A DNA stretch of 64,000 nucleotides from Alphaproteobacteria bacterium (GCA_965276005.1 OZ254962.1:2564455-2628454); one strand, 5' to 3'; counted from the stretch's first letter, positions 6,001 through 7,717 are shown. Program-made: numbers and translations. Notes: a model not told the origin generated them from the letters alone.

Positions 6001-7717
6001 TACCGTAAACACAAACGGCAGCTGGGGGCAATCTGTATCCTTGCAAAACACCATCGGGGACGGTGCCGGTGTCGGTGTCTCTTTGAGAAAAGGCGATTAT
6101 TTTGGTTCCAGCATTGCTTTAAGTAATGACGGTTCCCGATTAGCGGTAGGTGCTTGGGGTGAAGGTGTGTGGTATGAGGGTTCTTACTTAGACGAAAATA
6201 ATCATATAGTATTTGACCCACAGATTAAGTGGGGTACCGGTGCCGTATATGTATTTGCCGTAAGCGGTACCACATGGGGACATACAGTCGACCAGAGACT
6301 TAAAATAAACGATGGCAACGGCGTTTCCTTAACATCGGACACGAGATTCGGATTTGCCGTTGCCTTAGACGGTGTTGGCAGTAACCTAGTGGTCGGAGCC
6401 TCCCGTGCCAACGGTAAACAACACAATAACGAAGGGGCTGTGTATTTATACAAGCTGCCAAAAGATACCGTATCGCCAATCATAGAAAAACTAAAAACCG
6501 GTGCCAGCGTAACCCTTGTTGCCAGCAACGATATTACAGTCGATGACAATCTCATCACTACAGCAGGCACAGGAAAATTAACCTTAATCGCCGGTCGGTC
6601 GATTAAAATCAACAGCGATGTAAAAATCAACGGCGGACTGATCCTAAAAGCCAATGACGCCAGCTATAGCGGTGTTGTTCTCAGTGACAGAGACACCGGC
6701 AAAGCCGAAATTACCGTTGCTTCAGGTAAAACCGTATCCGGCGGCAATAGCGATTTGCTTATCAAGATGCTTACGGGCAAAAGCAGTGCAGCGGCGAACA
6801 AAAAACAAACGGGCAAAATAACTGTCTGGAAAGCAGACGCTGCCCGTGTCAGCATTGTCCACTTAGGCACAGCAAACGCACAAAACAATTCGCAAATTGT
6901 CATTCGCAACGGCGGACAAATAACCGCCACAGGCGACCACGACAAGGGCGATGTGGTTATTGAACTAGCAGCAGAGAAGTTTACCAACAATTCGGACAGG
7001 AATGCCCTAAAAATAACGGATAGTACAGGCGACAAGGGACGGTTCTTAATATGGACAAAATCCTCTGCGGATACGCACCTAAATGGTATAGGCTACGATT
7101 TTAGAAAGAGTAATGTAACATACGACCCCGCAAGGGGCGATTTCCAAGCCAATCCTGTCACAGCGTCTGATGGCGACGACAAGAAATATAAATCAGGTGT
7201 TCTGTACAGAGCCAGTAGTAGCAGCCTATCCAGATCGAGTTATGACGGTAGCAGCAGCAAGACAAAATCTACCTTAACACTAGGCAACAGCGGTGGCAGC
7301 GGTAGCAACACTGGCACAATACTACTAGGTGCCAGTGCCATACTGTTGGGCAGCAGTATTGTAGGTGCAGGTAGCACAAGTGTTGCCAGTGTGGACAATA
7401 TATTCACCACCGGCATATACGCCCACTTACAGGGTATCGATATGCAGGCGATATATCAACCACCCACAGAAACAAAAAACCCCCGTTGGGCGTCAGTGTT
7501 TGACACTGCACAAGTGGCGAAATTAAAATACAAAGTCAAATACACCACTACATACGACATGGCGTTCTTGGCACATAACATCAAGGCACACAAGGTGGTA
7601 CCCTTTTATGAAATGGACGAAAAACTGTACGAAACCATGAAACGCATATTCGTACAACAATCGGCACCAACAGACAAAACCGCCGCTATCGACACAGGGG
7701 ATACCGCCCCTGCATAG
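1..7717 (+). CDS. Giant FG-GAP (integrin-alpha-like) repeat exoprotein, 3' portion. The frame is open from base 2, so the N-terminus lies upstream of the window (the ORF track's first Met at 179 is internal)
   Basis: About 30 tandem ~65-70-aa repeats with the FG-x-SVALSxDGxKLAVGA...GAVYLYT signature. These are followed by a beta-helix-like block (LTLIAGRSIKINSDVKINGGLILKANDAS...GKAEITVASGK...) and a Ser/Gly-rich linker. The C-terminal ~95 aa (GIYAHLQGIDMQAIYQP...KYTTTYDMAFLAHNIKAHKVVPFYEMDEKLYETMKRIFV) are shared with the 31082..36322 protein. There is no in-frame stop between base 2 and 179. Confidence 0.85.
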   Translation, partial: GKAVNYISKIGNGSVTDDGTRLSFNKDDFFGGGVALSDDGTKLAVSAIYDDTAGQDLGAVYLFTVGGTTWGGKVTLARTITDGAGVSLSSVDKFGYSVALNPDGSRLVVGAVDDGSGGNKRGAVYLLGLSGSSWGSTVEVRRIISDQDTLDLKVAGSFGSSVALSDDGSKLAVGAQGYWATAHENKGAVYLFEINTLMRSWGNDILYTRRISDGNGVSLSSGDAFGSSVALSGDGTKLAVGASDTNSYRGAVHLFSVGGSRWGNTVTNTKKIGSGLSLQTKDAFGSGVALSGDGSKLAVGASGDDNDTGAVYLFTVAGSGSTWGSTVSKIKTIDKTTAGLSLSSRDKFGSSVALSDSGIRLAVGAIGDDTGDNDTGAVYLLRIGVTTWGDSTAKIAKIADGSNVSLTTGDAFGSSVALSNDGSRLAVGAEGDSTGGTSSSNRGAVHLFAVDGSSATWGQYVTHITKIAHGAGVSLSDHDAFGSAVALSGDGTKLVAGASGDDTSRNNAGTIYTFTIDRNDAAWGGKVTKTNKYATAKLSLSAHDAFGSSVALSKDGKRLAVGASGDETGGSNAGAVYVFTVADADSANNIKWGSTLSQQTKIAHGVGGLLLSKGDGFGGSVAFDKDGTKLAVGAKGADSSKGAIYLFTVGGATWGDTVTKIKDIVTGTAGLTLTTGDTFGSAVALSEDGSKLAVGASGSDSSKGAVYLFTVSGGTWDGSSQVSQIHTIKDGTGGLTLTANDQFGSAVALSADGGKLAIGADGTDSAKGAVYLYTIGGATWSSSSTISQIRELTDGVGKLSLSANDGFGNAVALSKDGSKLAVGADGDDTGASDAGAVYLYTIGGATWSSGSIITQTKKIADGVDGVSLSKNDNFGSSVALSGDGTKLVVGASGDDSNGYNAGTIYTYIVTGNSNAWGSTVTQAVKLSHGASILSATISLDYGDYFGSSVSLSADGTKLAVGAMYDNDGGTNRGAVYLYTVGGSGATWGNTVTQAVKLSHGTLLSSGTVSLDDDDHFGRSVSLSSDGTKLAVGAWSDNDGGTNRGAVYLYTVGGSGITWGSTVTQAVKLSDSHASVSLDSGYFGASVSLSADGAKLAVGSGCFYLPQNRGAVYLYTVGGATWGSTVTQAVKLSDSHASVSLDNGDSFGSSVSLSADGTKLAVGASGDDDGGLLNPGAVYLYTVGGSGTTWGSTVTQAVKLSDSHASVSLDNRDWFGRSVSLSADGTKLAVGAPYDDDGGSNWRSNLGAVYLYTVGGATWGSTVTQAVKLSDSHASVSLGDYDNFGSSVWLSGDGTKLAVGARGGSRGGAVYLYTVGGSGATWGSTVTQAVKLSHGAVLSSGTISLDNSDNFGRGVSLSSDGTKLAVGAYGDDDGGTNRGAVYLYTIGGSGAIWGSTVTQAAKLSDSRTGGFGMGVLLSADGTKLAVGAWGNGGYRGAVYLYTVGGSGATWGNTVTQAVKLSHGAALSSGTVSLDPDDFFGSGVSLSGDGTKLAVGAWGDDDGGGYNKPYGRGAVYLYTIGTSSAAGATWGSKVTQAVKLSHGAVLSSGTVSLGYNDRFGSSVSLSADGTKLAVGAEGDNDGGAVYLYTVGGSGATWGSTVTQAVKLSDSHASVSLDNRDYFGSSVSLSSDGTKLAVGARRDDDGGSNRDANRGAVYLYTVGGSGATWGSTVTQAVKLSDSHASVSLDDDDEFGISVSLGADGTKLAVGARRDDDGGYNRGAVYLYTVGGSGATWGKTVAQTNKASATHDGTLTISQTNKLFAKQNISLTYNEGFGTDVALSDDGTKMAVGAEFNDTGGTNRGAVYLFELSGGENFGENVYYTAEVAHGNGVSLNDIDRFGAGVALNHDGSRLVVGAPYDTTGMPSGTPSGGRYGAVYLFRVGGSSWGTDITQLHKQKSTTKGHFGESVAISGDGTKVAIGAPYDDTKAYHRGVVKLYTIASNNAFRLSKTYGHGDSVGSSQTLSLQTGEQFGEAVALSDDGSKLAVGALGRDNYKGRVYLFTVNTNGSWGQSVSLQNTIGDGAGVGVSLRKGDYFGSSIALSNDGSRLAVGAWGEGVWYEGSYLDENNHIVFDPQIKWGTGAVYVFAVSGTTWGHTVDQRLKINDGNGVSLTSDTRFGFAVALDGVGSNLVVGASRANGKQHNNEGAVYLYKLPKDTVSPIIEKLKTGASVTLVASNDITVDDNLITTAGTGKLTLIAGRSIKINSDVKINGGLILKANDASYSGVVLSDRDTGKAEITVASGKTVSGGNSDLLIKMLTGKSSAAANKKQTGKITVWKADAARVSIVHLGTANAQNNSQIVIRNGGQITATGDHDKGDVVIELAAEKFTNNSDRNALKITDSTGDKGRFLIWTKSSADTHLNGIGYDFRKSNVTYDPARGDFQANPVTASDGDDKKYKSGVLYRASSSSLSRSSYDGSSSKTKSTLTLGNSGGSGSNTGTILLGASAILLGSSIVGAGSTSVASVDNIFTTGIYAHLQGIDMQAIYQPPTETKNPRWASVFDTAQVAKLKYKVKYTTTYDMAFLAHNIKAHKVVPFYEMDEKLYETMKRIFVQQSAPTDKTAAIDTGDTAPA
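2700..5210 (+). repeat. About 12 near-identical tandem DNA repeats (~200-220 bp each) inside giant gene 1. Each encodes one FG-GAP unit (ggggcggtgtatctgtacactgtcggcggttctggtgccacatggggcagtacggtaacgcaagcggtaaaact...)
   Basis: The same ~60-nt core recurs at about 2920, 3124, 3528, 3740, 3917, 4137, 4315, 4743, 4963 and 5160 with few substitutions. Confidence 0.8.

Follow-up and report, generated by a model that had tools for sequence, protein, structure and literature searches.

How giant TpsA adhesins are held, matured and released, and what purpose their conserved extreme C-termini serve, is an active question. HMW1, the subject of work by Buscher and colleagues in 2006, is a TpsA protein whose extreme C-terminus reportedly remains periplasmic and fastens the adhesin to the cell, and its tether is said to be a short disulfide-bonded loop with no hydrophobic helix and no folded domain. 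FhaB of Bordetella ends in a low-complexity proline-rich region and a domain of ~100 amino acids (aa); during display this domain sits in the periplasm and shields the prodomain from being degraded, and the C-terminal ECT/CT of this protein regulates prodomain degradation (PMC4542190). Recent work on FhaB has recast such a C-terminus as a delivered effector, the C-terminal domain being reported to be delivered into host cells and to bind microtubules (2025 preprint, bioRxiv 10.1101/2025.06.17.660209). The C-terminal half of CdiA is retained in the periplasm, and hydrophobic helices occur in some CdiA-CT toxins (PMC11630599). In GlyGly-CTERM proteins, which are secreted, a C-terminal helix after a Gly-rich motif provides transient anchorage (PMC6219818). 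Here we describe a natural variant on this theme, found in a 64-kb stretch of alphaproteobacterial DNA (GCA_965276005.1 OZ254962.1:2564455-2628454; the whole of this stretch is called the window). Two giant open reading frames (ORFs) in the window, gene 1 (2..7717) and gene 2 (31082..36322), both on the + strand, encode TpsA-type exoproteins that end in a membrane-type helix and a domain without known relatives, a combination present in at least eight paralogues per genome.

Every family member that was examined ends in the same module, which consists of a Gly(/Ser)-rich stretch, a hydrophobic helix, a spacer and a C-terminal domain (CTD) of ~85 aa with a short Thr/Asp tail. The helix and the unannotated CTD together make up a C-terminal module that is new, in a TpsA family restricted to one narrow lineage; the function of the module is one that we infer. 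The segment shared in frame by the two genes of the window runs from 7382 to 7714 in gene 1 (stop codon 7715-7717) and from 36035 to 36319 in gene 2 (stop codon 36320-36322), with 95-111 residues of the C-terminus aligned between the two; the coordinates and the ~65% identity given for it in an earlier, sequence-only reading of this DNA were correct, BLASTP giving 61% over 100 aa (E=3e-35) and MAFFT 64%. The CTD core of gene 1 (7394..7654, + strand, 87 aa) extends from DNIFTTGIYAHL to KRIFV, and that of gene 2 (36047..36286, + strand, 80 aa) from DTIFNSGVYAHL to KRIFV. Behind the cores lie a semi-conserved Thr/Asp-rich tail with the stop codon in gene 1 (QQSAPTDKTAAIDTGDTAPA, 7655..7717, + strand) and a short tail with the stop codon in gene 2 (HSGETDDTPHS, 36287..36322, + strand); the tail consensus QQSxPxxKTAxxDTxDxxPA is found in most family members and is missing from some. 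Using tblastn with either copy as the query, we found exactly two copies of the CTD in the window, at the ends of gene 1 and gene 2, which rules out orphan CTD cassettes there. Between the two cores the synonymous divergence (dS) is 0.71 and the nonsynonymous divergence (dN) 0.19 by the Nei-Gojobori method, and the dN/dS ratio of 0.26 indicates purifying selection. The value of dS also shows that the likeness is not due to recent gene conversion, and it rules out recombination homology between the copies at the DNA level.

The sequence ahead of the CTD turned out to be more informative than its composition suggests. Low-complexity sequence had been described in front of both domains and is present, Ser/Gly-rich in gene 1 and Gly/Ala-rich in gene 2; the accompanying statement that the two linkers differ completely has to be withdrawn, since both hold a Gly-rich stretch and a 19-aa hydrophobic segment that are kept family-wide, and the difference is confined to the spacer after the hydrophobic segment (7 aa vs 47 aa). 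In gene 1 the Ser/Gly-rich stretch (SSSSLSRSSYDGSSSKTKSTLTLGNSGGSGSNTG, which includes an LGNSGG motif) occupies 7214..7315, the transmembrane-like segment TILLGASAILLGSSIVGAG 7316..7372 and the short spacer STSVASV 7373..7393. The corresponding parts of gene 2, on the + strand like those of gene 1, are a DLATP motif with a poly-Gly stretch (DLATPGGSGGGSGGGGGGGDSG, 35783..35848), the transmembrane-like segment AGVVLLGAGAVVATQTGVL (35849..35905) and the 47-aa Gly/Ala spacer (35906..36046). The segment of gene 1 is the sole hydrophobic 19-mer among the 2571 visible residues of that protein (Kyte-Doolittle 1.77), with a rough Hessa sum of +0.76, which is marginal, and the segment of gene 2 is the only part of its protein to exceed a Kyte-Doolittle value of 1.6 (1.74), the signal peptide of gene 2 falling below this cut.

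The same holds throughout the family, in which the hydrophobic segment is 17-23 residues long, rich in Gly, Ala, Val and Leu, and separated from the CTD by a spacer that varies from 0 to 54 aa among paralogues. Its family motif can be written hhLhGAGhAhh..GG, as exemplified by AIVLVGAGVAAVASGVI in the member P0008. In a Kyte-Doolittle scan, each member longer than 300 aa showed a signal peptide and one hydrophobic stretch only, across thousands of residues. Of the 16 members above 300 aa, 14 score 1.7-2.4 for this stretch with 19 residues averaged at a time, the fragments P0003 and P0017 score 1.39 and 1.43, and nothing else in these proteins except signal peptides rises above 1.6. A Gly(/Ser)-rich run precedes the segment, and roughly every second member also has the motif [DE]L[GAS][NT][PS] before the poly-Gly. 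Acidic residues are found on the N-terminal flank of the segment, and in the most divergent lineage, the members on the metagenome contig L008, R or K directly follows it (IMGIRDGR, GGGGAKSS). The Gly/Ala-coding run around the spacer of gene 2 had been called slippage-prone: it is indeed GC-rich (GC 0.69), but Tandem Repeats Finder reported short imperfect arrays only and the longest perfect tandem stretch is 20 nt, so that slippage here is possible but a weak claim, and the run is not striking.

An exhaustive HMMER search with a two-sequence profile of the CTD (limit 1e-3) returned 18 matches among 1.84 billion representative proteins, 17 of them at E <1e-10, with nothing further up to the limit. 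The CTD forms the extreme C-terminus of every match longer than 300 aa, and three short matches are fragments or remnants. All 12 full-length proteins are TpsA exoproteins with TPS, FG-GAP and YDG parts, each of them carrying the TPS motif LNRVTG and 11 of the 12 also NPNGI. Pairwise identity of the CTD among family members ranges from 51 to 100%; the means among paralogues are 65% for the CTD and 76% for the first ~520 mature residues, in proteins whose total length runs from 1374 to 4537 aa. The family is confined to three alphaproteobacterium-like organisms, with at least eight paralogues per genome: seven representatives lie on a single contig of 2,965,790 bp, on which P0011 is the eighth, most other placeable members come from contigs of ~9x coverage in the European Nucleotide Archive (ENA) metagenome ERZ26858540, and two divergent remnants stand in tandem on a 2x contig of the metagenome ERZ25067872 (L008, 11,164 bp). 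Two more TpsA genes, met by chance in the flanks of the loci L002 and L004, likewise end in the helix and the CTD. The closest TPS domains outside the family belong to TPS-YDG/MBG proteins of Rhizobiaceae and Rhodobacteraceae (38-49% identity), the SufB protein encoded in the window is 74% identical to SufB of Azospirillum and Shinella, and a TrcR-family gene is present in L004; the host is accordingly likely to be an alphaproteobacterium.

Some members of the family are visibly damaged. L008 represents a third, more divergent organism, with two tandem TpsA remnants that each end in a CTD at 30-38% identity; the genes on this contig are broken into many small ORFs, probably by errors at 2x coverage. 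In the metagenome organism some family genes, at L003 (3503-13564) and L005 (3-2256), come as two or three separate ORFs, such as one of 2139 aa and one of 1187 aa with a gap of ~80 bp, and could be either pseudogenes or products of assembly frameshifts. In the 2.97-Mb genome, P0011 is a CTD-only remnant with a read-through tail.

The CTD had been called novel, and this holds: it has no match in Pfam, NCBIfam or the sequences of the PDB, and only the 18 relatives among the 1.84 billion proteins. Profile searching, which had been proposed as one way to check the claim, matched the CTD to no well-characterised domain family. What the comparison with Pfam, NCBIfam and PDB sequences did return was noise, with Tap-RNA_bind at 17 bits (cut-off 24) and dephospho-CoA kinase at E=0.22 as examples, and the CTD profile found nothing at E <0.1 among PDB chains, a set in which the presence of FhaB-CT is unconfirmed. 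A word-indexed homologue search gave nothing for the CTD alone, the index evidently missing giant proteins; with the last 439 aa it returned one family fragment, and with the 18-sequence profile three short family members. Two scans of GTDB species genomes yielded no CTD relative, the species of the window being apparently absent or masked there, and tblastn against plasmids yielded none either. The sole match in Joint Genome Institute (JGI) metagenomes, at the locus L001, was a chance match to FLAHNIKAHKVV inside a universal-stress-like protein.

Structure prediction left the fold of the CTD tentative. AlphaFold2, given 18 sequences, suggested with low confidence a beta-hairpin and two helices (predicted local distance difference test, pLDDT, 53; predicted template modelling score, pTM, 0.18). 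Foldseek returned nothing from the PDB for this model, a result that is meaningless because the query itself is unreliable at such a pLDDT. Since the block of ~250 aa that the two genes share upstream of the module (block 2) folded well with a shallower alignment, the failure to model the CTD is not explained by alignment depth alone; the fold of the CTD may be one unfamiliar to AlphaFold2, or the domain may need a partner in order to fold. The sequence-only reading had pictured a globular C-terminus behind a flexible linker, and of this picture the conserved C-terminus stands, whereas the linker has proved to contain a conserved helix and the globularity of the domain is unproven.

What the module might do is suggested first of all by its pattern of conservation. 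It is as conserved as the TPS domain while the passengers between them differ, which is the pattern expected of parts that face a shared machinery. On balance we regard the module as probably a part for retention or maturation that faces the machinery and remains on the cell side of the outer membrane. In favour of retention, the helix is the only segment of membrane-grade hydrophobicity besides the signal peptide, and it has flexible Gly-rich tethers on both sides; acidic residues precede it and, in the most divergent lineage, R or K comes right behind it. Also in favour are the dN/dS of 0.26, the lack of both helix and CTD in the nearest outside TpsA proteins, which are encoded beside a TpsB gene, the cell-side C-terminal parts of FhaB and CdiA, the transient anchoring of GlyGly-CTERM proteins and a tail-anchored coiled-coil protein encoded directly upstream of a family member at two loci. 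A more specific proposal, that the module is an inner-membrane anchor with a cytoplasmic CTD, is one that we put forward tentatively. The two options named in the sequence-only reading, a secretion/maturation (pro)domain or an effector, both have a precedent in FhaB; the anchor is a third option that arises from the helix, and we rank it slightly higher than these two.

We infer membrane insertion, topology, retention and a release step for the module, and together these would make up the following sequence of events. During Sec export the hydrophobic helix would lodge in the inner membrane as a stop-transfer anchor; the CTD would fold on the cytoplasmic face to serve as a stopper or docking knob. 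The N-terminal part of the protein would be threaded through a shared TpsB pore, secretion would then be arrested, and the adhesin would remain tethered to the cell until freed by proteolysis. Taken to its full extent, the proposal describes a TpsA family that spans the whole Gram-negative envelope, with the N-terminus passed through the TpsB pore, the helix in the inner membrane and a folded domain in the cytoplasm, forming a mechanical or signalling tether whose release is controlled from inside. This extended form is possible, if doubtful; were it true, these proteins would be the first type Vb substrates with a cytoplasmic domain and would link surface adhesion to the cell interior.

Several observations weigh against retention by an inner-membrane anchor. 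We know of no TpsA protein with a cytoplasmic domain. No TpsB gene was found in the 64-kb window, nor within <=10 kb on either side of the family genes in L002-L005 and L008, and no protease partner was identified; TpsB could be encoded elsewhere in the genome. Rough Hessa sums for the helix range from -0.3 to +3.6 kcal/mol across the family, which is marginal, and both window genes and most other members lack a K/R cluster after the helix, the net charge of the C-terminal flank being ~0, so that a positive-inside signal is lacking in most members. The CTD was not modelled confidently, its globularity is accordingly unproven, and its isoelectric point (pI) varies from 4.6 to 10 across the family. 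Finally, PhoA fusion places the C-terminus of FhaB in the periplasm (PMC4542190), and the hydrophobic helices that CdiA ionophore toxins carry at a TpsA C-terminus can cross Sec (PMC11630599).

The main rival is an arrangement of the FhaB type, in which the whole C-terminus is exported to the periplasm and stays there during display of the adhesin, and the CTD is either a cap that regulates degradation or maturation, like the FhaB ECT, or a cargo that is driven into a target (host) cell once a receptor has been bound, the Gly-zipper-like helix aiding the crossing of the target membrane. The parts follow one another as they do in FhaB, namely TPS domain, long passenger, beta-helix, low-complexity linker and a small terminal alpha/beta domain of ~100 aa (PMC4542190), and effectors have been reported to cross target membranes by means of Gly-zipper segments (PMC10240207). 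The marginal hydrophobicity of the helix and its want of flanking basic residues would suit passage through Sec; against this, most members reach Kyte-Doolittle values of 2.2-2.4, which are typical of true membrane anchors. Many paralogues with varied passengers and one CTD could represent several receptor specificities that deliver one cargo, but the charge of the CTD is not conserved, as its range of pI shows. Likewise, the subtilase lipoprotein encoded beside gene 2 recalls SphB1, the protease that matures FhaB, but such a gene was not seen at the other family loci. The CTD shows no sequence similarity to a PDB chain, the linker is not proline-rich, and Pfam detected no FHA-1/FHA-2 repeat families; we consider export of this type rather unlikely. 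A sorting signal comparable to GlyGly-CTERM and rhombosortase would work by processing: a dedicated intramembrane protease would recognise and cut the Gly-rich motif and helix, releasing or lipid-modifying the passenger, and the CTD would be a discarded part or a recognition handle. The tripartite look of the region, with its [DE]L[GAS][NT][PS] motif, poly-Gly and a helix rich in small, helix-destabilising residues, resembles GlyGly-CTERM, which comprises a Gly/Ser-rich motif, a hydrophobic region and basic residues (PMC6219818), and the logic of many substrates for one enzyme would suit at least eight paralogues. However, known sorting signals stop within a few residues of the helix, whereas in this family the helix is succeeded by 0-54 aa of spacer and then by a domain of ~85 aa under selection; the upstream motif is missing from several members, no NCBIfam sorting-signal model matched, and no rhomboid-like or sortase-like gene was found among the window ORFs scanned or the called genes of related loci. 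We therefore judge a sorting signal to be improbable.

Two further explanations fare worse against the conservation of the CTD. An antibacterial toxin of the CdiA-CT kind, for example an ionophore acting through the hydrophobic helix and delivered to neighbouring bacteria, would fit a location at the C-terminal end of a TpsA protein and a Gly-zipper-like helix such as is found in the ionophores of contact-dependent inhibition, CDI (PMC11630599). The CTD is conserved rather than polymorphic across paralogues and organisms (mean identity 65%), neither protein has a VENN or pretoxin demarcation motif, and there is a single helix instead of a helical bundle. Since all paralogues share the domain in conserved form and nothing resembling an immunity gene lies downstream of gene 1 or gene 2, a polymorphic effector of this type is very unlikely. 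The remaining account, that the module has no specific function and its likeness is left over from recent duplication or gene conversion among paralogues, can point to a family that is young and taxonomically narrow and to paralogues that share long stretches, but it is scarcely tenable given the values of dS (0.71) and dN/dS (0.26) between the window copies, the persistence of the module at 30-38% identity in a divergent third organism, and its invariable place at the extreme C-terminus.

The two proteins that carry the module are built alike. The reading frame of gene 1 (>2571 aa visible) is open up to base 2, so that the left edge of the window cuts off its start and the N-terminus of the protein; its close homologue P0002 (2963 aa) opens with a signal peptide and the TPS motif. 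Within the visible part ~29 FG-GAP_2 repeats (Pfam, 7.5e-202 over 29 stretches) are followed by a beta-helix block and then by the C-terminal module. Gene 2 is complete at 1746 aa, identical to the database protein P0004, and consists of a signal peptide, a TPS domain, FG-GAP repeats, a beta-helix block, a YDG region and the C-terminal module. Its Pfam E-values are 1.1e-33 for TPS, 4.7e-30 for FG-GAP_2 and 1.3e-6 for YDG; PF05860 scores 117.7 bits (cut-off 33.5), TIGR01901 74.9 bits, and the NCBIfam filamentous hemagglutinin N-terminal domain is matched at 3.5e-21. The Sec signal peptide of gene 2 reads MRCDKKVFMVASSLYAAGMLSGGFAYA|GG, where the bar stands before the two glycines that follow it. 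The mechanically called ORF begins with a TTG at 30998, and the ATG at 31082 used in P0004 (MRCDKK...) gives a normal signal peptide. Block 2, which lies at 6461..7213 in gene 1 and 34079..34711 in gene 2 (both + strand) and is 48% identical between them, is confidently predicted to be a right-handed beta-helix of the TpsA type, the nearest structural matches being EtpA, HxuA, HMW1 and FHA, all of them TpsA proteins; in long paralogues it sits in mid-protein, between the FG-GAP array and the YDG array. Among the FG-GAP units of gene 1 is a run of near-identical copies at about 2900-5300 of the window (GAVYLYTVGGSGATWGSTVTQAVKLSDSHASVSLD...), which dominate the over-represented k-mers of the window, and the number of repeats varies between the close homologues P0002 and P0003. 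The run suggests recent tandem amplification of these units.

Around gene 2, two genes on the + strand could be considered as accessories of the family. The first, upstream of gene 2 (27421..29853, 810 aa), encodes a subtilase-type (S8) lipoprotein with a Peptidase_S8 domain (Pfam, 2e-12), the lipobox LSAC and a beta-rich C-terminal third; it matches the autotransporter serine peptidase EprS weakly, and no autotransporter barrel family was detected in it. It recalls the maturation proteases of surface proteins of the SphB1/NalP type, and no subtilase was found near family members at the other loci examined. The second (30049..30744), directly upstream of gene 2, encodes a tail-anchored coiled-coil protein with repeats of ~11 residues (ETKKDIERFQA) and a C-terminal transmembrane helix. 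A homologue of the latter (35% identity, E=1e-25) is encoded at 8905-9507 of L002, directly upstream of P0007, an association seen at two loci only, and the sequences suggest that the coiled-coil protein could be an accessory or partner of the family. As neither gene is consistently linked to the family, both are possible accessories only. Downstream of gene 1 are an Rrf2-like regulator and then the suf operon (sufBCDS). Downstream of gene 2 the ORFs 36425-36682 and 36694-37107 look, from sequence alone, like a RelE/ParE-type toxin and helix-turn-helix (HTH, Xre-like) antitoxin pair, and the genes downstream of family members at other loci differ and are unrelated. Neither the window ORFs scanned nor the called genes of related loci include a rhomboid-like or sortase-like gene. 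At 24493-26113 and 16047-17159 the window also encodes an N6/N4 DNA methylase, inserted after the ribonucleotide reductase genes and adjoining an unannotated ORF of 231 aa that is possibly a restriction partner, as well as a separately located type I restriction-modification specificity subunit. The 9-mer ACAAGCGGT occurs six times against 0.77 expected, a count reached in 0 of 100 shuffles, at 3583, 8247, 15672, 21000, 48706 and 57252, dispersed and on both strands; a search for neisserial DNA uptake sequences was negative.

If the helix is an inner-membrane anchor, the module would represent a new retention mechanism for type V secretion. If it is instead exported, it would be another linker-plus-CT module, the second of its kind and unrelated to the first, serving as cargo or regulator and bringing a membrane-active element of its own. 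The immediate reach of either conclusion is limited by the narrow range of the family, which comprises three uncultured or poorly known alphaproteobacterium-like organisms.

Compared with the described systems, the module appears from its sequence to blend features of FhaB, CdiA and GlyGly-CTERM and to belong to none of them, because no sequence homology to them was detected, its linker is not Pro-rich, it comes with no VENN motif or immunity gene, and the protein continues past the helix. It differs from FhaB in that no sequence similarity was detected, that the linker is rich in Gly, Ala and Ser where that of FhaB is rich in Pro, that a conserved hydrophobic helix is not described for FhaB, that the passenger is built of FG-GAP and YDG parts rather than FHA-1/FHA-2, and that paralogues are numerous in each genome, with no TpsB gene adjacent to them. 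Like FhaB, on the other hand, these are TpsA proteins in which a low-complexity linker leads into an alpha/beta domain of ~100 aa that is strictly conserved and forms the very C-terminus; the C-terminal part of FhaB stays on the cell side during display, and a subtilisin-type protease takes part in its maturation, to which the S8 lipoprotein beside gene 2 may be compared. The closest TPS domains (38-49%), those of Agrobacterium WP_333717577.1 and Shinella WP_203320452.1, also come from Alphaproteobacteria and precede passengers of YDG/MBG repeats, but these proteins are without the hydrophobic helix and the CTD, are encoded beside TpsB and IalB-family genes, and have no FG-GAP expansion noted. 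From CdiA the family is set apart by a CTD that is conserved and not polymorphic and by the lack of a VENN/PT motif, an immunity gene and a recognisable FHA-2 or secretion-arrest domain, whereas the TpsA nature of both, the arrest of CdiA secretion with the C-terminal part in the periplasm and the Gly-zipper-like helices of some CdiA-CT toxins are points of likeness. Unlike GlyGly-CTERM, the module has a spacer and a domain of ~85 aa after the helix rather than a short basic tail, does not match the TIGR/NCBIfam model and has no rhombosortase gene among the window ORFs scanned; what it has in common with GlyGly-CTERM is a Gly/Ser-rich motif directly before a hydrophobic helix that lies towards the C-terminal end of secreted proteins, and one signal that serves many substrates.

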